Below are positions 1-48,251 of a stretch of DNA of 50,828 nucleotides, one piece after another. The notes under the pieces are model-generated. The model was not told where the DNA came from. It saw only the letters and a list, made by a program, of their open reading frames with translations, and searched no databases. The position numbers and the translations under genes are program-made. Source of the stretch: a phage. The stretch is taken from the sequence record PZ452605.1. One strand, 5' to 3'. Each line of letters begins with the position of its first letter. Positions within the stretch are counted from its first letter, which is position 1.

Positions 1-1569
1 ATGATCATATGGGAAGATTTGACGGCGGCGCAAAAGCGAGCCATTAAAGAAATCAGTGAGCATTCATTCGAAAAGATGATCAGAATCTGGTTTCAGTTAT
101 TGCAGGGGCAAAAATTCCAGAGCAACTGGCATTTTAGCTTATTGTGCAGTGAGGTAGAGAAGATCATCAATGGAGAGTCGCAGAATGTGATTTTCAACAT
201 TACGCCAGGTAGCGGTAAGACTGAGATTTTCTCGATCCACATGTCACCCTACGCGTCATTGAAAAGTCGTAAGGTGAGAAACCTTAACCTTTCGTTTAGT
301 GATGGACTTGTCCAGCAAAACAGCAACAGGATAAAGGAGATTATCGGTTCTCCTGAGTGGCAAGAGCTATGGCCAGGAAAACTGGCAAAGGCGAGCGCAA
401 AAGATCTCATAGTTACGGATGGCGGCAAGGTTAAATTGCAAGTTAACTCACGTTCTATTGGCGGACAGGTAACAGGTTTGCGTGGCGGCTATATGGATGA
501 TGGTTTTACTGGTATGCTGGTTCTGGACGATCCAGACAAGCCTGATGATATGCTTTCTAAGGTCAAGCGTGAGGCGATCCACATGAGGTTAAAAAACACA
601 GTGCGTTCTCGTCGAATGAAAGACACCACGCCAATTGTTATGGTGCAACAGCGACTACACGTTAATGATTCCACCTGGTTCATGCTTAATGGCGGGATGG
701 GCGGTATTGAGTTTAAAGTTGTGAGCATTCCTGCGCTGGTTACGAAAGAATACCGCGAAACGCTTCCTGATTGGTTGAAGCCTGAATTTGATCGTGATGT
801 GTTGTCAAGTAAGCCAGTGATGATAGATGGAGTTGCTCATTATTCATTTTGGCCTGCAAAGGAAAGCGCGGAGGAATTGCTTGCATTGCGCAATGCAGAT
901 CCTTACACGTTCGCCAGCCAATACCAACAACAACCCATCGCGCTTGGCGGCAACGTGTTTAAAACAGAGTGGTTCCAGTATTACGGCAGCGGCGAAAAAT
1001 GCGCACTTCCTAAACCGGATCGCTTTGAATACACATTTATTACTGGAGATACAGCACAGAAGGCCGGAGAGCTTAACGACTATTCAGTTTTTTGTTATTG
1101 GGGGATGTATAAAAATCGCGTTTACTTCATTGATGGCATTCGCGGCAAGTGGGAAGCGCCAGATCTTGAATTAAATTTTATTGCCTTCGTTAATCAGTGC
1201 TGGAAGCGCAATAAGGAGTGTGGCAGCTTGCGACGTATTCACATTGAGGATAAGGCCAGCGGCACGGGTTTGATTCAGGGGGCCAAAAAGAAGATCCCGA
1301 TTGATATAAATCCCGTTCAGCGAAGCAATGACAAGGTAACGCGAGCAATGGACGCCGCGCCAGTAATGAGGGCAGGACGTGTGGCACTGCCAGAAAGTCA
1401 TCCCATGTTACCTGAGATACTGGCAGAGGTTGCAGCGTTCACTTTTGACGATTCTCATCCCCATGATGATATTGTCGATAATATAGTTGATGCTGTTAAC
1501 GTAGAAATGAACTTGGCAGATGATCCGGTAGCAAGGATGAAAAAGCTGGCTGGTCTACGCAATAAATAG
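1..1569 (+). CDS. terL: terminase large subunit
   Basis: 522-aa ORF, ATG at nt 1; Walker A-like PGSGKT near N-terminus; followed by portal gene. Window end (ta) plus nt 1 (a) would form TAA overlapping this ATG if the sequence is circular. Confidence 0.8.
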   Translation: MIIWEDLTAAQKRAIKEISEHSFEKMIRIWFQLLQGQKFQSNWHFSLLCSEVEKIINGESQNVIFNITPGSGKTEIFSIHMSPYASLKSRKVRNLNLSFSDGLVQQNSNRIKEIIGSPEWQELWPGKLAKASAKDLIVTDGGKVKLQVNSRSIGGQVTGLRGGYMDDGFTGMLVLDDPDKPDDMLSKVKREAIHMRLKNTVRSRRMKDTTPIVMVQQRLHVNDSTWFMLNGGMGGIEFKVVSIPALVTKEYRETLPDWLKPEFDRDVLSSKPVMIDGVAHYSFWPAKESAEELLALRNADPYTFASQYQQQPIALGGNVFKTEWFQYYGSGEKCALPKPDRFEYTFITGDTAQKAGELNDYSVFCYWGMYKNRVYFIDGIRGKWEAPDLELNFIAFVNQCWKRNKECGSLRRIHIEDKASGTGLIQGAKKKIPIDINPVQRSNDKVTRAMDAAPVMRAGRVALPESHPMLPEILAEVAAFTFDDSHPHDDIVDNIVDAVNVEMNLADDPVARMKKLAGLRNK

Positions 1570-1585
1570 CACTAATTGCTAAAAA
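1566..1585 (+). repeat. intergenic motif copy, co-directional (variant ATAGCACTAATTGCTAAAAA)
   Basis: contains terL stop TAG; followed by TATAAT and terminator. Confidence 0.5.
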
Positions 1586-6189: not shown

Positions 6190-6209
6190 CGTTTAACAAA
6201 AAGTGCTAT
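6190..6209 (-). repeat. intergenic motif copy, inverted relative to flanking genes
   Basis: GTTTAACAAAAAGTGCTAT upstream of capsid gene hairpin and RBS. Confidence 0.55.
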
Positions 6210-9217: not shown

Positions 9218-9880
9218 ATGCACTTGCCTAATGGTTCTCAAATTTTCATCGGCGTTAATATGGGTGATCCGATTCAGGTTACGGCTATTTCAAATGCTGA
9301 CGATCCTGTTTTTACTACTGACAGTCCTCAAAATATTGAGAAGGGCGCTTATGTTCTTATTGAAACATCTTCCTGGGGAAAACTTGTTAGTCGAGTCCTT
9401 CGAGTAAAGGAAGTAACTGGCAATCAAGGTTTTACTCTTGAGGGTGTAAGCACGAAAGACACCAATGTTTTTCCGGCTAGTTCTAATACAGCAACCTTCC
9501 GAGAAGTAAAATCATGGGTAGAGATTCCTTGCGTGCAGGATCTTGCGCAGGACGGCGGCGAGCAACAGTATTACACTTATCAGTGTTTGGCTGACGACCA
9601 GGAGCAGCAGTTACCGACCTATAAGAGCGCCGCTTCTCTTACCTACACTTTCGCGCATGAATATGATAACCCGATTTATCCGATCTTGCGCAAGGCTGAG
9701 GAATCCGGCGACGTAACAGCTTTGCGTATGTACGTTCCTAAAGCTAAAGAGATGCGTTGCTGGGCTGGCGTATTGTCCTTTAATGACATTCCGCAAACAA
9801 CTATGAACGAAATGGAAACTGTTTCCCTTTCCGTATCTCTGAAAGGTCGATTCACGTTCTTACCTTCTGACGTTAAGTAA
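9218..9880 (+). CDS. major tail protein
   Basis: 220 aa; AGGAGG RBS; followed by strong terminator and then the chaperone/tape-measure genes. Confidence 0.55.
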   Translation: MHLPNGSQIFIGVNMGDPIQVTAISNADDPVFTTDSPQNIEKGAYVLIETSSWGKLVSRVLRVKEVTGNQGFTLEGVSTKDTNVFPASSNTATFREVKSWVEIPCVQDLAQDGGEQQYYTYQCLADDQEQQLPTYKSAASLTYTFAHEYDNPIYPILRKAEESGDVTALRMYVPKAKEMRCWAGVLSFNDIPQTTMNEMETVSLSVSLKGRFTFLPSDVK

Positions 9881-9885
9881 AACAA

Positions 9886-9907
9886 GGGGCGTTGCGCCCC
9901 TTTTTTC
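9886..9907 (+). terminator. rho-independent terminator
   Basis: GGGGCG-TT-GCGCCCC then T6. Confidence 0.65.
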
Positions 9908-9945
9908 ATTCCTGTAAAATCAATCTATCAAATAAATCAATTTCA

Positions 9946-9965
9946 CTTTTAACAAAAAGTGCTAC
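9946..9965 (-). repeat. intergenic motif copy, inverted, abutting RBS of chaperone gene
   Basis: CTTTTAACAAAAAGTGCTAC then AAGGAG. Confidence 0.6.
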
Positions 9966-9979
9966 AAGGAGATCTTGAG

Positions 9980-20689: not shown

Positions 20690-20738
20690 TACTCCTTAGT
20701 TGTTGTTGGCTGCAACTATACACGATCTTGGGCATCGC

Positions 20739-20757
20739 GTTTAGCAAAAAGTGCTAT
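20739..20757 (-). repeat. intergenic motif copy (variant) in cor-exonuclease control region
   Basis: GTTTAGCAAAAAGTGCTAT. Confidence 0.5.
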
Positions 20758-26749: not shown

Positions 26750-26766
26750 TGTAAAATCCTCCTAAA

Positions 26767-26786
26767 TAGCACTTTTTGCTAATGAC
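26767..26786 (+). repeat. intergenic motif copy abutting RBS of minus-strand fibre gene
   Basis: ATAGCACTTTTTGCTAATGA; inverted relative to the fibre gene. Confidence 0.55.
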
Positions 26787-27839: not shown

Positions 27840-28316
27840 TTAGCTATTTGTGCTGTTATCACCTTTGTAGAATCGTCCGCCTGGTTCGTAGTCTGAATTT
27901 TTGACTACGCGCAACATCTCGTATTTGTCGCAACGGGTAGTAAGAGGCTTACCGTTAGAATCAAACCGCAGATCTGGACGACAAAATGATGCGCGGTATC
28001 CTTTGCATCCATTATATTTGTAGTCGTTATGCACCTTTTGTGCTCCAGCGGCTGAAATCATACCACGCTTTCGCCATTGGTTAACGACTTGCTGAGATAC
28101 GCGTAGACGTCGAGCCATAGCAGGAACACCGCCATAATACTCGATCAGAATATCCAAGCGAGATTTCAGGCTTGCTTTTACCTCATCTCGCAGGATAAGA
28201 AATCCGGTTCGGTGTTTTCGTGGCTTTTTGTCTTTACCTCGTCGCGTTCCGTTGTTACCGTTAATAGTGCGCTTGTCGATCTCACCCGTAGACACCGCAA
28301 TTCGTGCATCTTTCAT
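27840..28316 (-). CDS. HTH DNA-binding protein (Cro/YdaS-like)
   Basis: YGGVPAMARRLRVSQQVVNQWRKRG helix-turn-helix signature; Cys-containing C-terminal extension. Confidence 0.5.
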   Translation of the reverse strand: MKDARIAVSTGEIDKRTINGNNGTRRGKDKKPRKHRTGFLILRDEVKASLKSRLDILIEYYGGVPAMARRLRVSQQVVNQWRKRGMISAAGAQKVHNDYKYNGCKGYRASFCRPDLRFDSNGKPLTTRCDKYEMLRVVKNSDYEPGGRFYKGDNSTNS

Positions 28317-28327
28317 CTAGTCACCTC

Positions 28328-28347
28328 ATAGCATTTTTTGTTAAAAC
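28328..28347 (+). repeat. intergenic motif copy abutting RBS of minus-strand HTH gene
   Basis: ATAGCATTTTTTGTTAAAAC in helicase-HTH divergent region. Confidence 0.55.
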
Positions 28348-28404
28348 AGTTTATTGTAATGAGTCTATTATATACTCCAAATGGCATTTTTTTAAAGGTT
28401 TAAG

Positions 28405-30402
28405 ATGATTCCAAATATCGAAAAACAAATATCAGCGTTAGGCGAGGCAGTAATAAAAAGCATCCAAGAGCGATTCACGGTTGGCAATATAGTGCCTTAT
28501 CCTTATCAGTGCGTTGCGTATGCCGAGATCGCAAAGCGCATGAAAAACTATGAGCATCCTTTCTTTGTTAAGGCTTCTGTGTCGGCTGGCAAAACATTGA
28601 TGTTTGCGATGGTTGCGGCGCAATGCCGCAAAATGGGATTGAAAATGATGGTCCTTGCTCGCCAGGCTGAAATTGTTGATCAGGATTCGGAAGAGATCAG
28701 CAATCTTGGAGTGCCAAACTCAATCTATTGCGCCGGACTGAAAACAAAAAGCGCATACTTTCCGATCGTGGTCGGTTCTGAGGGCACTGTAGTAAACGGA
28801 TTGTTTAAGTCGTTAGGTGATTATGTTCCGCACGTTATCGGTATTGATGAATGTCACCAGGTGGATTGGGAGGATCTCGCGGACGCGATAGAAAATAATG
28901 AATCTTACCAGCAGATGACCACTAAGAAGGATTTGCCAGTACTGATTGGAGAAGAACAGCAATTTGATTCCAATGGCGATCCAATGTTCGGAACAGGACG
29001 CACACAGTACACCGTAATAATCATGGAAATGATGCGCAGGTGTCGCGAGGCATACGGGCACGAATTGCGAATATTCGGTATGACTGGATCTGAATTTCGC
29101 GGCGTGGTTCCAATACTGGTTGAAGATAAGAACAAAAAGGGATTCTGGCGTGAGCAGGTGACTAACATAGACACAAACTACTTAATCAAATTCGGTTCGG
29201 TAGTGCCAACAAACTTCGGCGACGTAGGCGACCTGGGTTATGACCTTTCAGAGTTCGAAGCCAGTAGCGAGGATGGCGTTTCAGACTTTGACGCTAAAAC
29301 ATTGCGCAAGATGGAAGAAAAGATCCATCAAGACGCAACAATGACACAGAAAATCATGGCTAAAGTCCATGAGATATGCAAAGACAGGAACGGAGTTTTA
29401 GTTACATGCGCAGGGGAAAGGCACTGCAAGGAGGCCGCCGCCGCACTGCCGCCAGGCGTTGAATACAGGATCATAACTGGCAAGACTGGAGATAATCAGC
29501 GTAAAGAGTGGCTGAGGGAGGCATGCGAGGGAAAAGTAAAATACATCTTCCAGGTACAGGCGCTTACCACTGGCGTTAACGTTCCGTTTTGGGATACTTC
29601 GGTAATACTGAGAAAGATAGGATCTCTAACATTGCTTATCCAGCTTTTGGGGCGCGGCATGCGACTGCTTAAGCAATGGCACATTGAGCAGGGATTCAAG
29701 AAAAAAGATCATCTTGTATTGGATTTTGCAGGTACTATGGATGAGTTAGGTGATTTGTATTTCGATCCAATCCTTGAGCAAGCGCAATTCCAAAAGAGAT
29801 TTACAAACGGGAAAGAGCCTAAGACTTGTCCGATATGTGGAACGCTAAACAGCTTTTACGCTCGCCGATGTATGCACGTAGACGATAACGGGAAGCGATG
29901 TGAGCATTTTTGGACTTACAGAATTTGCGAGGACCAGGTAGATCCGAGAACGAAAAAGATAATCAAGCGCGGTTGCGGAACAAAAAACGACGTAGTGGCG
30001 AGAGTATGCCGTTGTTGCGATATTTCTCTTGTCGATCCTAACGAGAAGTTAAGCGGTAAGCACTACACCAAAAACGATTGGTGCAACGTTAAATCTTTCC
30101 GCGTTGATATGACGAAAAACCAGAAAGGAATTATTTTTTGCTATGAGCTTGAGGCCAACGGCGACACGTTCAAGGCATACGAAAGATTTTTCCCTGAGTC
30201 AGAAAGCAACATTTGCCGGACGATATGGAGAAAAATAGCATTGCAGCACATACCGGATCGCAAGATTGCTGGTATGGTGGCGAGCTATAGAAATGCTCGT
30301 AAAATAATGTCATACGCTCATCACATCATGCCGCCTGTACGCGTAACGCATCGCAAAAACGGCAAAGGTGAGGATAACATTGCAAAACGGGAGTTTGTTT
30401 AA
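28405..30402 (+). CDS. SF2 DEAD/DEAH-type DNA helicase
   Basis: 665 aa; Walker A SAGKT, motif II IDECHQ, C-terminal CxxC zinc-finger cluster. Confidence 0.7.
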   Translation: MIPNIEKQISALGEAVIKSIQERFTVGNIVPYPYQCVAYAEIAKRMKNYEHPFFVKASVSAGKTLMFAMVAAQCRKMGLKMMVLARQAEIVDQDSEEISNLGVPNSIYCAGLKTKSAYFPIVVGSEGTVVNGLFKSLGDYVPHVIGIDECHQVDWEDLADAIENNESYQQMTTKKDLPVLIGEEQQFDSNGDPMFGTGRTQYTVIIMEMMRRCREAYGHELRIFGMTGSEFRGVVPILVEDKNKKGFWREQVTNIDTNYLIKFGSVVPTNFGDVGDLGYDLSEFEASSEDGVSDFDAKTLRKMEEKIHQDATMTQKIMAKVHEICKDRNGVLVTCAGERHCKEAAAALPPGVEYRIITGKTGDNQRKEWLREACEGKVKYIFQVQALTTGVNVPFWDTSVILRKIGSLTLLIQLLGRGMRLLKQWHIEQGFKKKDHLVLDFAGTMDELGDLYFDPILEQAQFQKRFTNGKEPKTCPICGTLNSFYARRCMHVDDNGKRCEHFWTYRICEDQVDPRTKKIIKRGCGTKNDVVARVCRCCDISLVDPNEKLSGKHYTKNDWCNVKSFRVDMTKNQKGIIFCYELEANGDTFKAYERFFPESESNICRTIWRKIALQHIPDRKIAGMVASYRNARKIMSYAHHIMPPVRVTHRKNGKGEDNIAKREFV

Positions 30403-30821
30403 TGGCTATAACTGATAAAGGAGATTATCTTGAGTTTTACGAAAGAGATCCAACCGACACGAGAAAGGAAGTTAATCACCAGATAGATAGCTTTCAGTGG
30501 TTGACTTATGCTCATCCTTATTTGCTAGCGTGGCATACGGTAAACGAGAATGAGAAGTCGAAAGTAACTGCGATGATTGATCAGCAGTCCGGCTTGGTTA
30601 AGGGGGTAAGCGATTTCATCATCCTGATTGGTTCAAACGGAAAATACCCCTTTGCAGCGATTGAGATCAAACGAGTGAATAAATCAGGCAAGGGGAAAGC
30701 ATCACCAGTCAGCGATGAACAAAAGGCTTTTTTGCGTCGCGTTCGCAGCTTAGGAGGATTCGCTGCGGTCGCCTACGGATTTAATCAGTTTAAGTTAGCT
30801 ATTGAATACATGCTTAAATAG
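30402..30821 (+). CDS. VRR-NUC domain nuclease
   Basis: 139 aa; GVSDFIIL ... AIEIKR PD-(D/E)XK-like core; ATG overlaps helicase stop. Confidence 0.55.
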   Translation: MAITDKGDYLEFYERDPTDTRKEVNHQIDSFQWLTYAHPYLLAWHTVNENEKSKVTAMIDQQSGLVKGVSDFIILIGSNGKYPFAAIEIKRVNKSGKGKASPVSDEQKAFLRRVRSLGGFAAVAYGFNQFKLAIEYMLK

Positions 30822-30837
30822 CACTTTTTGTTAAAAC
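30818..30837 (+). repeat. intergenic motif copy, co-directional
   Basis: exact ATAGCACTTTTTGTTAAAAC containing stop TAG of VRR-NUC gene. Confidence 0.65.
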
Positions 30838-30901
30838 TGGCGCGATGGATTGCGCCATAATTCAATAACACGAGATGGCTTTTAATAGCGGAGAAATGAA
30901 A

Positions 30902-31631: not shown

Positions 31632-31889
31632 ATGAAAAAAGAGAGAAGCGTTTATTTAAATGAAACTGGCGAGTGGTTGTTATTTCGCGCTATGGTGTGC
31701 GATGCACTTGATAAAAACCCTAACGTGAAAAAGATGATTGATTGCGATCCGTGGGAATTTTCAAGCGCATTAGATATGAGCTTTGATGAGACAAGAAAAC
31801 TCCCTCTTGAAAAATGGCACGAACAAATCAGAAATGATATGCAAGAGTTTGTAGATTCGTGGAATTTTCAGAACGGAATGATCCACTAA
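31632..31889 (+). CDS. hypothetical protein
   Basis: 85-aa ORF; stop followed by intergenic motif. Confidence 0.4.
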   Translation: MKKERSVYLNETGEWLLFRAMVCDALDKNPNVKKMIDCDPWEFSSALDMSFDETRKLPLEKWHEQIRNDMQEFVDSWNFQNGMIH

Positions 31890-31908
31890 TAGCACTTTTT
31901 GTTAAAAC
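31889..31908 (+). repeat. intergenic motif copy, co-directional
   Basis: exact 20-mer directly after stop TAA; followed by hairpin, CATAAT and CATCGAAACGAAC. Confidence 0.65.
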
Positions 31909-31964
31909 GCCCGGCATTTTGTCGGGCATAATTATTTCATCGAAACGAACGTGAGGAAATGAAA

Positions 31965-35070: not shown

Positions 35071-35130
35071 AATTTTACCTTTTGGTTGTTTCGTTTCAAT
35101 GAAACAAATATACCCGACACTAGGCCGGGC

Positions 35131-35150
35131 GTTTTAACAAAAAATGCTAT
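35131..35150 (-). repeat. intergenic motif copy, co-directional (minus)
   Basis: reverse complement ATAGCATTTTTTGTTAAAAC containing stop TAG. Confidence 0.6.
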
Positions 35151-37240: not shown

Positions 37241-37292
37241 TCGTTAGCTTCTCCTTTGTGGGCCGTAAATTTTAACGGCCCAATACTACCCC

Positions 37293-37312
37293 GTTTTGTC
37301 AAAAAGTGCTAT
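37293..37312 (-). repeat. intergenic motif copy, co-directional (minus)
   Basis: ATAGCACTTTTTGACAAAAC containing stop TAG. Confidence 0.6.
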
Positions 37313-37919: not shown

Positions 37920-37965
37920 ATCTCCTTTGTTTGTTCGATGTGATTATGCCAGGTTTTACACCTGG

Positions 37966-37985
37966 CTTTTAACAAAAAGTGCTAT
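37966..37985 (-). repeat. intergenic motif copy, co-directional (minus)
   Basis: ATAGCACTTTTTGTTAAAAG containing stop TAG of methylase gene. Confidence 0.65.
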
Positions 37986-39945: not shown

Positions 39946-39999
39946 CTTTAAATCCTCGTTTGTTGTCGATGCGCTTACTATACCAATCAGCAGCGCATC

Positions 40000-40020
40000 G
40001 TTTTTAACAAAAAGTGCTAT
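40000..40020 (-). repeat. intergenic motif copy, co-directional (minus)
   Basis: ATAGCACTTTTTGTTAAAAAC right after stop TAA. Confidence 0.65.
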
Positions 40021-40717: not shown

Positions 40718-40971
40718 TTTTTCTTCTCCTGCAATAAGCAAACATCATTGATAAAATCAGTACGGCCCTTAATGTTGCTGATGTGGAACGTCTTTTCAGC
40801 GTACAGGCCATCACCTTCAATCACGATCATTACGCGAGTCGGTTTATTCACGGGCGCACGAGAAAAGGGTTGGCGCACCGGAAGAAATTTAGTAGCCACA
40901 TCCAGGTTAGCCCTGGCGGCCCTGCAAAACACCTCCGCCAGATCCAAATCATTTTCGGTAATCACCGCCAT
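40705..40971 (-). CDS. hypothetical protein
   Basis: 88-aa ORF. Confidence 0.4.
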   Translation of the reverse strand: MAVITENDLDLAEVFCRAARANLDVATKFLPVRQPFSRAPVNKPTRVMIVIEGDGLYAEKTFHISNIKGRTDFINDVCLLQEKKKCWM

Positions 40972-41243
40972 TACTTCTTGATCTCCTCACTGATAAATTT
41001 CAGCACCTGACGCAAGAAAACTTCGTTGTTGATAGTCGCTGGCAATTCTTCTTTCACTTCTTGCGGCAGATAGATATTGCCGTGCCAGGTCAAGCAATCG
41101 TAGTTAATACGATAAGAGCAAAGCCACTCGCAATCGTTATCTGCTTCCCATATGCAGAGTTGCAGAACATCGCCAAAATCTTCAACAGTCAGATCCAGAC
41201 CGTGACGCTTAGCGAAATTGAAAGTGGTTTTGCTGATGTTCAT
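40971..41243 (-). CDS. hypothetical acidic protein
   Basis: 90-aa ORF with GGAG RBS after motif-hairpin-leader. Confidence 0.4.
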   Translation of the reverse strand: MNISKTTFNFAKRHGLDLTVEDFGDVLQLCIWEADNDCEWLCSYRINYDCLTWHGNIYLPQEVKEELPATINNEVFLRQVLKFISEEIKK

Positions 41244-41302
41244 TTACTATCTCCTGAGCGGTTCGTTTCGATGGGATAACTATACCAGGTTATCCCGATC
41301 AG

Positions 41303-41322
41303 CTTTTAACAAAAAGTGCTAT
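41303..41322 (-). repeat. intergenic motif copy, co-directional (minus)
   Basis: ATAGCACTTTTTGTTAAAAG right after stop TAA. Confidence 0.65.
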
Positions 41323-41625
41323 TTATTGTTTTGCGTGGCGCTCAATGTAAGCGCGGATAGTTTCAGCGGTGTCTTTCGCAGATCCAAACGTGCCCTTTAC
41401 ATGGCGAGCGTCGCGGTAAGCCTGGAAGAATTTACGCGCGATATTTGCAAACATTGCACCAGTAACGCGAGCGTCGCCAAAATTTGTTTCAATGGCATTG
41501 CTGATGCCGTCCTGGAATTCATGCTCAGTCATGAACAGTTCAGCCATTTCTGCTGTTTCGAACAGGTCAGCCAGTGCTGCCATATTCTCGTGGTCTTTAG
41601 CGGTGAACAGGTTCATGTTAATCAT
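41323..41625 (-). CDS. hypothetical protein, first gene of early leftward cluster
   Basis: 100 aa from ATG with GAGGA RBS. Confidence 0.45.
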   Translation of the reverse strand: MINMNLFTAKDHENMAALADLFETAEMAELFMTEHEFQDGISNAIETNFGDARVTGAMFANIARKFFQAYRDARHVKGTFGSAKDTAETIRAYIERHAKQ

Positions 41626-41689
41626 TGTTTGGTCCTCATTAAGTGCGGTTCGTTTCGATGTGTGCAATGTACCCGATCAGGCGGCCTGA

Positions 41690-41709
41690 GTTTTAACAAA
41701 AAGTGCTAT
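41690..41709 (-). repeat. intergenic motif copy upstream of first early leftward gene
   Basis: exact 20-mer with no upstream gene; iterons lie just upstream on minus strand. Confidence 0.65.
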
Positions 41710-41740
41710 TTGACGGTTAGCACCAGGATTGCGATCTAAA

Positions 41741-41828
41741 TAATCAAAAGTAATCATTCGTAATCAAATCACGTCAAAATGATGATTGCCTTTGCAAATT
41801 TGATGAGAAAAGTAATCACGTTTAATCA
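41741..41828. repeat. five TAATCA iterons at 10-bp phasing
   Basis: TAATCA at 41741, 41751, 41761, 41813, 41823; in divergent early control region. Confidence 0.6.
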
Positions 41829-42264
41829 TTGGTTGCAGGGGAGATAGTGAAACCTTCCCCTCTTGCCTCACTTTTCCGCCCGGCTGTCAGTGGTTGTTGT
41901 CTTTTGTTCACCCCTGTTACCGATTTCAGGCGGCGTGTTTCCGCGCGGTTTTCCGGTGTAGCGAAAACGGAAAAAACAAAGAAAATCCTCTATAATACAT
42001 TGAAAATAAAGATTATTTATTTATATATATCTATAATGTTTTCTTTTTGTTCTCACTGTTACAGTGCTTTTTGTTGGTTATGGTGTGGTTGTGTGTGGGT
42101 ATATATGGATAGTTGCGCGCGCGGCGGATTGCATATGTATATATACTTTTTCCGGCGGATTGCGTTAACAGCGTGAACAGAAAAATAACAGCCGCGAAAT
42201 CAATAACTTGCGCATGATTTTGTAGTTTTTCGATATTGGTAACGTTTTGAATACAACAAAAACA

Positions 42265-42292
42265 TTGACACGCACCAAATAGCTTTTATAAT
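42265..42292 (+). promoter_or_regulatory. consensus sigma70 promoter (TTGACA-16-TATAAT)
   Basis: perfect -35 and -10 hexamers with 16-nt spacer, 30 nt upstream of ATG 42324. Confidence 0.65.
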
Positions 42293-42323: not shown

Positions 42324-42788
42324 ATGGAACAGAAAACCACTAAGGACTATTGCGATTGGCTTCGCGAGCTTGGTCGCCGCCTGGCTAGTGGAGATATTGA
42401 AGAGTATAAAATGTCACTAATTGACCTTGCCGGAATGTTAAGCGGTGACGACTGCTACAAGATCACGCGCAGTTCATCCTACAGCCGGACCATTATCAAC
42501 CGCGTTCCAGAAGTAAGGGCCGCAGGTCGGGTAAGTATCAAGGTCGAGGAAACGGAAGATGATAAATTTTACGTTTTCCGCATGGTCCGCGAATCGAAAA
42601 GGAAAATCATCACACCCGAAGAATTGCCAGCCATCAAGGCAAGGGCGATCAAAAAGTTTGCCGATCGCTTGCTGGCAGCAATCCCGAATATCGTTGACCT
42701 GGAAGGGGATAAACTGGCTGGAGCTTGTGAGGGCGTAAGCCGCTACCAGGATATGATCCGCGAAATCATCAAAGAGGAAGAGCAATGA
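42324..42788 (+). CDS. hypothetical protein, first gene of early rightward cluster
   Basis: 154 aa from ATG with GGAGG RBS. Confidence 0.45.
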   Translation: MEQKTTKDYCDWLRELGRRLASGDIEEYKMSLIDLAGMLSGDDCYKITRSSSYSRTIINRVPEVRAAGRVSIKVEETEDDKFYVFRMVRESKRKIITPEELPAIKARAIKKFADRLLAAIPNIVDLEGDKLAGACEGVSRYQDMIREIIKEEEQ

Positions 42789-43057
42789 AAAAGGCATTAA
42801 TCAGCGTTTTGGCGGCAATGGCATTCCTGACCGGATGCAAAGAAGATGGCGCGCATGTTGGCAATGTGCAGATGGCTAACCCTGGCGATGACTACAGCGT
42901 AAGGGAGCTATTCACCGCTGACGGTTGCACAGTTTACCGATTCTATGACGATCGCACTGTTTACTTCACCAACTGCAAGGGAACGACTAGCTGGGAAGTG
43001 TCGAAAAGCAATGGCAAAGGCACGAAGACAGAACATATGACCGTCGAAACAAAATAG
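42785..43057 (+). CDS. small lipoprotein (second)
   Basis: 90 aa; signal peptide with lipobox LTGC; two further Cys in mature part. Confidence 0.55.
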   Translation: MKKALISVLAAMAFLTGCKEDGAHVGNVQMANPGDDYSVRELFTADGCTVYRFYDDRTVYFTNCKGTTSWEVSKSNGKGTKTEHMTVETK

Positions 43058-43073
43058 CACTTTTTGTTAAAAC
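43054..43073 (+). repeat. intergenic motif copy, co-directional
   Basis: exact 20-mer containing stop TAG of lipoprotein gene; precedes candidate structured RNA. Confidence 0.65.
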
Positions 43074-43106
43074 TCAAAAGCGATAACCAGGCATAATACA
43101 CACATA

Positions 43107-44391: not shown

Positions 44392-44411
44392 ATAGCACGA
44401 ATTGTTAAAAC
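44392..44411 (+). repeat. intergenic motif copy, co-directional (variant)
   Basis: ATAGCACGAATTGTTAAAAC after stop TAA; TATAAT 18 nt downstream. Confidence 0.6.
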
Positions 44412-44464
44412 TCAAATGTGGGGCCAGGTATAATGGCCTCACTTTCAACGAAGGAGATAAAACG

Positions 44465-45415: not shown

Positions 45416-45573
45416 CTTGGTTGCTTTTAATCTTTGTCACAAGTTACAACTCCGCAGCTATTGAGTCGCAGGAGTTCCACGGCGAATCAAGATGCCAGGA
45501 AGCGCGAAAGCAAGTTGTTCTCCACATGTCAGATAGTGGGAAGGATGTAACAGCGTTATGCGTTCGTAAATAG
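45412..45573 (+). CDS. small protein with N-terminal hydrophobic segment
   Basis: 53 aa; ATGA overlap with upstream stop; stop TAG embedded in motif; below ORF-track cutoff. Confidence 0.3.
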   Translation: MTWLLLIFVTSYNSAAIESQEFHGESRCQEARKQVVLHMSDSGKDVTALCVRK

Positions 45574-45590
45574 CACTTTTTGCAAAAAAC
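45570..45590 (+). repeat. intergenic motif copy, co-directional (variant)
   Basis: ATAGCACTTTTTGCAAAAAAC containing stop TAG of small ORF. Confidence 0.6.
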
Positions 45591-45645
45591 AGATTAACGG
45601 GCTTGCGGTATAGTAAGCCCATCAACAACAAACGAGGATTAAATC

Positions 45646-46293: not shown

Positions 46294-46884
46294 ATGAAGC
46301 GAGACATTATCATCCTTAATGGGCCGCCAGGCTGCGGGAAGGACACTATTGCAGCTTACCTAACGGGCCATCGTTACCCTGCTGTCAAGGCGTCATTCAA
46401 ACAGCCGATGTTCGATATTGCTTTTTCTATGCTGGGCGTGTACCGATACGATGAATTTATGGACATGTACAACGACCGAGAGCAAAAAGAAAAGCCTCAA
46501 GTTATCTTAGGAGGCAAGTCACCTCGACAATTCATGATCTGGATTAGTGAGGATGTAATGAAGCCAGTTTTTGGGGGTCACTATTTCGGGCGTCGAATGG
46601 TTGAAGAGATTCACGAGAGGTACCGAGATTTGGCGGTTGTAATCAGTGATGGCGGATTCCCCGAAGAAATCAAGCCGCTTGTTAAGGCAGGGCATGAAGT
46701 GCATATTTGCCGATTGCATCGCGACGGCTTCACGTTTGCTGGCGATTCGAGAGACTACATTGACCTGAGCGGTTATCACTATCGAATCCATCACTATGAT
46801 TTCCACTTGCAGGAAGGTAAGCCGGAACTGGCTGTAAGCGAGATCGTCAATGCAGTCAAATGGAAGCACACACAGATTAAATAG
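46294..46884 (+). CDS. P-loop kinase (dNMP kinase-like)
   Basis: Walker A LNGPPGCGKDT resembling phage dNMP kinases; 196 aa. Confidence 0.55.
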   Translation: MKRDIIILNGPPGCGKDTIAAYLTGHRYPAVKASFKQPMFDIAFSMLGVYRYDEFMDMYNDREQKEKPQVILGGKSPRQFMIWISEDVMKPVFGGHYFGRRMVEEIHERYRDLAVVISDGGFPEEIKPLVKAGHEVHICRLHRDGFTFAGDSRDYIDLSGYHYRIHHYDFHLQEGKPELAVSEIVNAVKWKHTQIK

Positions 46885-46899
46885 CACGAATTGCTAAAC
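46881..46899 (+). repeat. intergenic motif copy, co-directional (variant)
   Basis: ATAGCACGAATTGCTAAAC containing kinase stop TAG; hairpin then TATAAT. Confidence 0.6.
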
Positions 46900-46954
46900 G
46901 CGGGGTTATCGGCCCCGCTATAATGCTCACATCAACAAGTAAGAGGAAATCACA

Positions 46955-47885: not shown

Positions 47886-48176
47886 ATGGCAAACAAAACT
47901 TACCGCAAACTACTGGTTAACGCTTTTGAAAACATCGCGCAGTGTAACAAGTGGAACGACTCTAAACACTCGCCAGTCACAATGAAGCGCGCCGGATTCA
48001 AAAATGCTCGTTCATGGGCGCGAGCTTTCGCATCTTGCTATATGCCTGATGGCGGATTAGGAGCGATGAACGATTTTTTAATCAACATGATAGAGGAGGC
48101 TGCGCGAGAGGATCGACCGCTGACACAGCGAGATTTTGACGACTTCGCGCGCGATGAGCTTTACTATCTGAGCTAA
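47886..48176 (+). CDS. hypothetical protein
   Basis: 96-aa ORF. Confidence 0.4.
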   Translation: MANKTYRKLLVNAFENIAQCNKWNDSKHSPVTMKRAGFKNARSWARAFASCYMPDGGLGAMNDFLINMIEEAAREDRPLTQRDFDDFARDELYYLS

Positions 48177-48195
48177 TAGCACTTTTTGTTAAAAC
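48176..48195 (+). repeat. intergenic motif copy, co-directional
   Basis: exact 20-mer after stop TAA; followed by hairpin AAGGGCA...TGCCCTT. Confidence 0.65.
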
Positions 48196-48251
48196 TTCCG
48201 CAAGGGCATTTGGTAAAGTGCCCTTATTGAAGCGAAACAGAGGAAAGCGCA

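Follow-up and report, generated by a model that had tools for sequence, protein, structure and literature searches.

What reads the short intergenic repeat that stands before many early genes of a T1-like coliphage, and what is the hairpin that follows it for? We addressed this question at positions 41,244 to 41,322 of phage sequence record PZ452605.1 (50,828 nucleotides; this whole stretch is called the window), where an earlier note had described a motif, a hairpin, a −10-like hexamer and a leader. The window comes from a T1-like, Warwickvirus-like coliphage of the Drexlerviridae: its focal region is 96–98% identical to the Warwickvirus-type T1-like coliphages SLUR29, tunus, tonnikala and FritzSarasin, its gene order is that of FritzSarasin and T1, and the focal cassette is located in a leftward cluster of small early genes. 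The repeat agrees at 13 of 14 specified positions with the marbox (soxbox) consensus, AYnGCACnnWnnRYYAAAYn (PMC3709825, PMC2064960). Together with the promoter geometry set out below, this leads us to consider it probable (roughly 60%) that the repeats are class II early promoters served by host MarA, SoxS or Rob, and that the hairpin acts on the transcript of the upstream gene.

The focal cassette lies on the minus strand, and its repeat begins 81 nt before the ATG:

41303–41322, minus strand: marbox-like 20-bp repeat ATAGCACTTTTTGTTAAAAG, with one mismatch to the marbox consensus (position 19)
41325–41323, minus strand: stop codon TAA of the upstream gene, adjoining the repeat
41285–41302, minus strand: G+C-rich spacer of 18 bp, ending in TGG (T−15, G−14)
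41273–41296, minus strand: hairpin GGGATAAC, loop CTGGTATA, GTTATCCC, with arms on either side of the −10; minimum free energy (MFE) −11.8, z −3.1
41296–41289 and 41280–41273, minus strand: 5′ arm of the hairpin in the spacer, and 3′ arm over the end of the −10 and the discriminator, ending at −1
41279–41284, minus strand: −10 hexamer TATAGT
41244–41272, minus strand: 5′ leader ATCGAAACGAACCGCTCAGGAGATAGTAA, with the putative start A at 41272
41273–41261, minus strand: leader stretch CATCGAAACGAAC
41255–41251, minus strand: ribosome binding site (RBS) AGGAG
40971–41243, minus strand: 90-aa gene, opened by the ATG at 41243

The window was searched with AGCACTTTTTGTTAAAA at up to three mismatches, which gave 18 matches against 0.42 expected; a nineteenth copy, missed by this first search, was recovered at 46881+ with the marbox consensus (copies are named by the first position of the repeat and its strand). 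The 19 copies follow the pattern ATAGCAC-N3-TTG-N-TAAAA. Of these 18 copies, 14 have a −10-like hexamer 18–20 nt beyond TTAAAA, and since the chance of this is 0.022 per site, the joint probability is about 1e-20. The fixed order of motif, −10-like hexamer and leader described in the earlier note is real. Complete promoters are formed by 15 of the 19 copies, with a gap of 17–19 bp between the 20-mer and the −10 (exactly 18 bp in 11 of the 15), and in these units the −10 is followed by C−1/A+1, an A/C-rich leader, an RBS and an ATG. The resulting unit of about 75 bp is repeated some 15 times.

To cover the phage family, viral contigs were scanned with ATAGCACNNNTTGNTAAAA and the T1-like loci were pooled into 218 unique copies, from which a non-redundant set of 143 copies with pairwise identities below 85% was drawn; the family-wide frequencies given here refer to this set. 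For 165 of the 218 unique copies, the distance from the 19-mer to the best −10 is exactly 19 nt, which makes 18 bp from the end of the 20-mer. Positions that had not been selected for are conserved as well, namely G−14 (86%), T−17 (64%), C−1 (80%) and A+1 (85%), and T−15 is present in 41%. The pyrimidine–purine step falls 6 nt past the hexamer, as expected of a start site, and from the −10 and this consensus we infer that transcription starts at C−1/A+1; the family leader consensus reads C−1 A+1 tcgAAAc.AA. Positions −35 to −30 read AAAACN, with no recognisable −35, and a −35-like TTGYTA is found 22 bp from the −10; a sigma-70 scan of the window leaves most cassettes unlisted. In phage T1, 14 of 19 repeat sites are complete promoters, with an 18-bp gap in 13 of the 14, and the layout and the 18-bp gap are retained in a Klebsiella Webervirus. 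With motif, −10, start and leader in fixed register family-wide, the proposal of a modular promoter-plus-leader cassette before many early genes is borne out.

The resemblance to the marbox extends beyond the consensus count. Seventeen window sites match the consensus with at most one mismatch, against 1.24 expected, and at least 13 of these are repeat copies. Across the 143 copies GCAC, R13 and AAA are fixed, while the polymorphic positions follow the marbox classes: position 2 is T or C (Y), position 10 is A or T (W) and position 14 is C or T (Y). The E. coli K-12 micF promoter reads ACAGCACTGAATGTCAAAAC, 18 bp, TAGAAT, and its box is identical to the phage box at 15 of 20 positions, both having A at position 19, with equal orientation and gap. 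Read as its reverse complement, ATGCCACGTTTTGCTAAATC, the marRAB marbox is identical to the phage variant ATAGCACGTTTTGCTAAAAC at 17 of 20. Relative to the putative start, the 20-mer covers about −50 to −31, in the forward strand sense as in micF. Class II marbox promoters have a forward box over the −35, centred near −41, and no recognisable −35, and in cryo-electron microscopy structures of micF complexes a monomeric activator touches the C-terminal domain of RNA polymerase's alpha subunit (alpha-CTD) and sigma region 4, holding region 4 off the DNA (PMC10268841, PMC12052159, PMC8811837, PMC9638938). At the level of sequence, the phage units have every feature of this promoter class.

On this reading, the 20-bp repeat would take the place of the −35 as a forward marbox, and would be bound by a monomer of a host AraC-family protein, MarA, SoxS or Rob (RamA in Klebsiella and Salmonella). 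Going by the micF structures, this protein, once bound, would touch both alpha-CTD and sigma-70 region 4 and bring host RNA polymerase to a near-consensus −10, preceded by G−14 and situated 18 bp downstream of the box as in micF. Initiation at C−1/A+1 would then yield a short, unstructured, A/C-rich leader with a strong RBS. That MarA, SoxS or Rob binds and activates these promoters is what we infer from sequence and geometry alone.

The remaining complete cassettes of the window, and the gene between the focal cassette and its sister, are as follows:

41645–41709, minus strand: sister cassette, with no significant hairpin; box 41709–41690, TACATT 41671–41666, putative start at about 41659
41660–41645, minus strand: leader of the sister cassette, CATCGAAACGAACCGC
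41323–41625, minus strand: 100-aa gene, part of a 387-bp insertion
39970–40020, minus strand: box 40020–40001, TATAGT 39982–39977, putative start at about 39970, hairpin around the −10
37936–37985, minus strand: box 37985–37966, 17-bp gap, CATAAT 37948–37943, hairpin wholly in the spacer
37262–37312, minus strand: box 37312–37293 (TTGACA variant), TAAAAT 37274–37269, hairpin around the −10
35100–35150, minus strand: box 35150–35131 (GCAT variant), TATATT 35112–35107, spacer hairpin with a T-rich tail
20708–20757, minus strand: cassette in the late region, with a perfect marbox match, 17-bp gap and TATAGT
28328–28378, plus strand: cassette of the helicase gene, without hairpin, adjoining the start of the divergent Cro/YdaS-like regulator gene (27840–28316, minus strand)
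30818–30868, plus strand: box 30818–30837, CATAAT 30856–30861, hairpin in the spacer
31889–31950, plus strand: box 31889–31908, hairpin 31909–31927, CATAAT 31927–31932, leader CATCGAAACGAAC at 31938–31950
43054–43104, plus strand: box 43054–43073, CATAAT 43092–43097, without hairpin
44392–44441, plus strand: GAA variant, 17-bp gap, TATAAT 44429–44434, hairpin around the −10
45570–45642, plus strand: box 45570–45589, 19-bp gap, TATAGT 45609–45614
46881–46931, plus strand: perfect marbox ATAGCACGAATTGCTAAACG, 18-bp gap, TATAAT 46919–46924, hairpin in the spacer
48176–48226, plus strand: box 48176–48195, TAAAGT 48214–48219, hairpin around the −10

The sister cassette at 41709− is the first promoter of the leftward early cluster. 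The cassette at 20757− precedes a small minus-strand gene with a signal-peptide-like start, in a Cor-like position.

We folded the stretch from −35 to +3 of each copy, with random 38-mers from the same loci as controls. The MFE was −8 kcal/mol or lower in 76% of the 143 copies versus 14% of the controls, with a median z of −3.6. Two kinds of register are preferred, one wholly within the spacer and centred near −21, the other with arms flanking the −10, in two versions centred at −12.5 and −11.5. The earlier claim that the 18–19 nt downstream of the motif fold as a hairpin therefore stands as regards a significant hairpin, but the spacer alone is usually insufficient and in most copies the arms flank the −10; moreover, folding each copy, as had been suggested, left four complete promoters without a significant hairpin (20757−, 28328+, 41709− and 43054+). 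Stem sequences vary widely between copies while complementarity is kept, and the counterparts of the focal hairpin in relatives, GGGGTAA/TTACCCC and GGGGTAA/TTATCCC, are compensatory and G·T variants.

Several observations bear on the molecule in which the hairpin acts. Its 3′ arm nearly always stops at or before +1, so that transcripts started at the cassette would not contain it. The non-Watson–Crick stem pairs on the sense strand are 74 G·T and 19 A·C, where composition predicts 58% G·T (p = 2e-5), a bias which indicates selection for a sense-strand structure, the simplest candidate being RNA that runs on from the upstream unit. Of the 12 window promoters where a co-directional gene ends at the repeat, 11 have a hairpin (z ≤ −2.3), against none of the three that lack such a gene (41709−, 28328+ and 20757−; Fisher p ~0.009). 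Across phages the corresponding values are 87% with and 52% without an upstream open reading frame, a comparison blurred by very short upstream reading frames and by locus ends. The stop codon of the upstream gene lies in the repeat or at its 5′ edge, so that only the spacer and the discriminator are free DNA, and it is this free stretch that carries the variable hairpin. The record of phage T1 marks three cassette hairpins as rho-independent terminators, and two window copies pass a terminator scan. Spacer-type hairpins have a mean of 3.4 T in the next 9 nt (20% have at least five), and hairpins around the −10 a mean of 1.4 (7% have at least five). Most likely, the hairpin acts in RNA read through from the upstream unit, where it may as well be an attenuator or a 3′ stabiliser as a terminator.

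The leaders tell how the cassettes relate to gene content. Among the leader coordinates in the earlier note, 31938–31950, 41648–41660, 45611–45642 and 39951–39980 (reverse complement) are right and 41270–41282 is 9 nt off the correct 41261–41273; CATCGAAACGAAC, which it called frequent, has only three exact copies in the window, the looser family consensus being what is kept across the 143 copies. Cassettes 40020− and 45570+ have their leader in common, and 16 nt are exactly identical between 41273–41258 and 41660–41645. Close relatives lack the 100-aa gene at 41323–41625 and have a single cassette there. Alignment with them defines a 387-bp insertion/deletion, made up of this gene and one cassette, and the 16-nt identity arises because its junction falls inside the shared leader CATCGAAACGA(ACCGC). 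Compared with FritzSarasin over 39.4–50.3 kb, 7 of 15 homology-block ends lie inside cassettes, which cover about 9%, and twice a single cassette of one phage corresponds to two of the other. The cassettes thus mark the borders of gene insertions and deletions between close relatives, in agreement with the idea that they are copied as modules, and their conserved ends, repeat and leader, probably serve as homology patches for the gain and loss of small early genes. A second recurrent leader ending, ACCAATCAGGAG, occurs in Klebsiella phage PKP126 and in many otherwise different cassettes.

Who reads the box is a question with more than one possible answer. The repeat is the same in Escherichia and Klebsiella phages, which fits a conserved enterobacterial factor, and within the phage tblastn with MarA and SoxS gave only matches with E-values (E) above 1, while Pfam found no AraC-type helix-turn-helix (HTH) among 20 early proteins. 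The phage does, on the other hand, encode a Cro/YdaS-like HTH protein (27840–28316, minus strand; TLS gp57, T1 ST23) that could bind the dyad TAGCA-N5-TGYTA, centred at −42, as a dimer, and either switch on delayed-early genes by class II activation or, as a Cro-like repressor, silence early promoters. The half-site centres are 10 bp apart with a variable centre, the regulator, with its Cro-like HTH, is present in 850 phage records, including the three Drexlerviridae genomes with a confirmed repeat, and a perfect sigma-70 promoter at 42265–42292 could give immediate-early expression without the repeat. The regulator gene also adjoins repeat copy 28328+, and in TLS transcription from its sigma-70 promoter P57 crosses DR11, as is typical of autoregulated genes. 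However, a 5-bp dyad in a 21-mer is weakly significant (estimate ~0.04), its halves are unequal, with G−47 invariant and its partner at −37 C in 57% and T in 39%, the flanks are asymmetric, and a single orientation with a single spacing is more in keeping with a monomer on an asymmetric site; the detailed agreement with the marbox and the micF geometry would have to be coincidence. Because of the unequal half-sites, the asymmetric flanks and the one orientation, we rank this phage factor below a host factor and think it unlikely, though it is a serious alternative, and host and phage factors could use the same site at different times. It is less likely still that no activator is needed and that host RNA polymerase alone uses these sites as extended −10 promoters, with the repeat as an UP-like or displaced −35-like element. 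The near-consensus −10, the frequencies of G−14 and T−15, the T- and A-tracts and the TTGYTA within the repeat all suit that idea, and UP-like elements were proposed by the authors of the TLS genome paper (PMC11447400); yet the best-conserved bases are G and C (GCAC, G−38), unlike UP elements, TTGYTA at 22 bp from the −10 is too far away for sigma region 4, and the repeat lies over the −35 position rather than upstream of it.

The hairpin allows two further alternatives. In the earlier note it was suggested as a possible control on access to the −10, and a DNA hairpin, as a cruciform or on the non-template strand, could gate RNA polymerase in this way: in 69 of the 109 hairpins with an MFE of −8 kcal/mol or lower the arms flank the −10 and hold it in the loop, and the G·T bias would also agree with pairing within the non-template DNA strand. 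We nevertheless regard gating as very improbable. The other 40 of the 109 lie in the spacer and leave the −10 core unpaired, though many reach the first −10 bases; promoters that start a transcription unit have no hairpin, both in the window and where orthologues were compared; and hairpins are gained or lost between orthologous promoters. Stems of 6–10 bp are, moreover, short for cruciform extrusion. The end of the 3′ arm by +1, the sense-strand bias and the absence of the hairpin where there is no upstream gene favour a structure of the upstream transcript over a gate at the −10, and the terminator annotations in the T1 record likewise speak against the earlier proposal. Hardly credible at all, to our minds, is the idea that the repeats are transcription roadblocks of the stoperator kind or, with the hairpin, antisense terminators (a hairpin followed by TTTTAAC on the opposite strand), even though stoperators were raised in the TLS paper (PMC11447400) and the hairpin directly adjoins the opposite-strand TTTT in four window copies. 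Neither a roadblock nor an antisense terminator has any need of the strict 18-bp register with the −10 and C−1/A+1, most hairpins lie 7–14 nt from the T run, and the wobble pairs point to the sense rather than the antisense strand.

Other candidates were considered and rejected. The DUF7174 protein was examined as a possible MarA-like factor; its AlphaFold model (pLDDT 83) consists of helices, then a beta-hairpin, then two long C-terminal helices, and Foldseek against the PDB returned nothing at E < 0.03, with faint winged-helix-like matches only, so that the protein neither resembles MarA nor can be assigned. A sigma-54 promoter (TGGCAC-N5-TTGCW, with GG and GC 10 bp apart) does not fit TAGCAC-N3-TTGY, which has no GG and is 2 bp short. 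A canonical sigma-70 promoter with TTGYTA or TTAAAA as its −35 would have a spacer of 22 or 19 bp, and sites for CRP, FNR, IHF, Fis, DnaA (DnaA box), ArcA and DeoR, compared by eye, gave no convincing fit. No Rfam family was found in the whole window, nor any tRNA or tmRNA.

Several points weigh against host class II activation. A−51, A−48, T−40 and T−39 are conserved beyond what a marbox demands and position 19 is A rather than Y, so that another or an additional binder is possible; the repeat core also reads as the dyad described above, and a conserved gene for a Cro-like HTH protein adjoins one copy. Rob has little activity unless inducers are present, and cells free of stress contain little MarA or SoxS, yet T1-like phages grow well in ordinary media. 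The copies 1566+, 6209−, 9965− and 26766+ lack a well-positioned −10 or are turned the wrong way within the late region, and our model leaves them unexplained. Most hairpins have no U-rich tail and hence are not canonical intrinsic terminators. The class II activation reported for RamA or MarA is only 2–4 fold (PMC8811837). The literature searched contained no start-site maps, transcriptomes or binding data for T1-like phages, although a recent paper on Rob or MarA with T1-like phages may exist, and our searches did not pair marbox or Rob with phage.

The repeat itself had been seen before, a point that, like the marbox match, escaped the earlier note. The 2024 genome paper of phage TLS lists 18 intergenic 21-nt direct repeats, aaATAGCACnnnTTGnTAAAA, in T, A and G sub-types, notes similar repeats in T1, Rtp and Rogue1, offers stoperators, enhancer sites and UP elements as guesses, and names their function as an open question (PMC11447400). 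These have the same sequence as the repeat described here, and are likewise intergenic, co-directional with transcription and about 76 nt before start codons; the paper tabulates the repeats alone, with no fixed −10, start consensus, nested hairpin, leader consensus or marbox match (PMC11447400). It is the only paper found to describe the repeat, and the fixed −10, start consensus, nested hairpin and leader have no mention in the papers searched. The layout as a whole and its identification with class II marbox promoters thus appear to be new.

With class II MarA/SoxS/Rob (RamA) promoters, micF in particular, the phage cassettes share a 20-bp asymmetric forward box near −41, 18 bp to the −10, the lack of a −35 and an AAAC-like sequence at −35 to −30. 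Unlike the degenerate host class II sites, the phage has 15–20 near-consensus and far more uniform copies in one virulent genome of 50 kb; in addition its cassettes carry a nested hairpin, the box overlaps the upstream stop codon, and binding is predicted. T4 middle promoters likewise combine a sigma-70 −10 and no −35 with an upstream box whose activator displaces sigma region 4. Their MotA box, (a/t)(a/t)(a/t)TGCTTtA, has its centre at −30, 11–13 bp from the −10, and is read by phage proteins, with AsiA. The box described here differs in sequence, stops 18 bp short of the −10, has its centre near −41 and looks like a site for a host activator; we therefore rejected a MotA-dependent middle promoter. 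CRP/FNR class II promoters and lambda PRM (cI at OR2) also have an activator site at −41.5 or −42, over the −35, but those sites are dyads bound by dimers, with sequences unrelated to the phage box. The PeSL of T4-type phages is likewise a small terminator/promoter unit between small early genes that flanks insertions and deletions of close relatives, with a stem-loop upstream of a normal sigma-70 promoter that has a −35 and an AT-rich upstream region (PMC2839356, PMC4122927). In the cassettes described here the stem-loop is instead nested between box and +1, a marbox stands for the −35 and there is no sequence homology, so that the analogy is a functional one only.

The repeat copies outside complete promoters have settings of their own. 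The copy at 9965− (9880–9965, minus strand) opposes late genes; a TAGATT follows it after 18 bp, and a bidirectional terminator lies some 10 nt past the predicted start, so that an antisense RNA of about 35–40 nt would result. This arrangement is kept in T1 (18850, minus strand), and the 5′ edge of the copy adjoins the RBS of a plus-strand gene at 9977. Three further copies, 26766–26785 (plus), 1566–1585 (plus) and 6190–6209 (minus), have no −10 at the right distance: 26766+, a ...GCTAATG variant conserved in several phages, adjoins the RBS of a minus-strand tail-fibre gene, behind 1566+ and downstream of the large terminase gene stands a true terminator, and 6209− lies beside a terminator in the head-gene region. 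Within 27840–28405, the regulator and helicase genes diverge from an 88-bp region. On its minus strand is a sigma-70-like promoter at 28395–28367 (TTAAAA, 17 bp, TATAAT), whose −10 overlaps the −10 of the plus-strand cassette, and the 5′ untranslated region of the Cro/YdaS-like regulator would include the reverse complement of the repeat.

A 550-bp non-coding stretch, 41740–42290, separates the divergent early clusters; it contains GTAATCA/TAATCA repeats, TATATA-rich palindromes and the direct repeat CGGCGGATTGC, and corresponds to the genome-end (pac/terminal repeat) region of T1. The sigma-70 promoter at 42265–42292 (plus strand; TTGACA, 16 bp, TATAAT, no repeat) precedes the DUF7174 gene (42324–42788, plus strand) and a DUF4884-like gene (42785–43057), corresponds to P01 of TLS and likely drives an immediate-early unit. 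Outside the phage family, the layout of box, gap and hexamer is found in unannotated intergenic DNA of E. coli plasmid NZ_AP022066.1 (84312–84380; ACAGCACTTTTTGTTAAAAG, 19 bp, TATAGT) and some 18 related plasmids of about 95–160 kb, in a match of only 26 nt (E ~2) that is possibly due to chance. A blastn search of E. coli genomes with the focal cassette gave only such 26-nt matches with E ~2, and was not used as evidence.

If host activators do read these boxes, early phage expression would respond to bile salts, salicylate, redox stress and antibiotics, replicating phage DNA could soak up MarA, SoxS, Rob or RamA, and the terminator-like hairpins would make each small gene an insulated, recombination-ready module. 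Whether all of this holds together, that is, whether T1-like phages have wired nearly their whole early programme to these host proteins through 15–20 class II marboxes per genome, with stress-responsive expression, titration of the activators by replicating DNA and nested hairpins that insulate recombination-ready gene modules, we regard as evenly balanced. The question left open by the TLS paper in any case becomes a specific one, namely whether host Rob, MarA or SoxS acts on micF-like early promoters of the phage. Whichever factor reads the box, a compact part is defined in which terminator-like hairpin, promoter and leader are nested, and PeSL-like modular gene shuffling is shown outside the T4-type phages. 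Should the factor be the host's, a phage family both large and common, made up of coliphages and Klebsiella phages, would use the antibiotic and stress regulon of its host to start infection, which would bear on phage–antibiotic interactions, on behaviour in the bile-rich gut and on the choice of therapeutic phages, and would be a clear case of a virulent phage that depends on a host activator rather than on a factor of its own.

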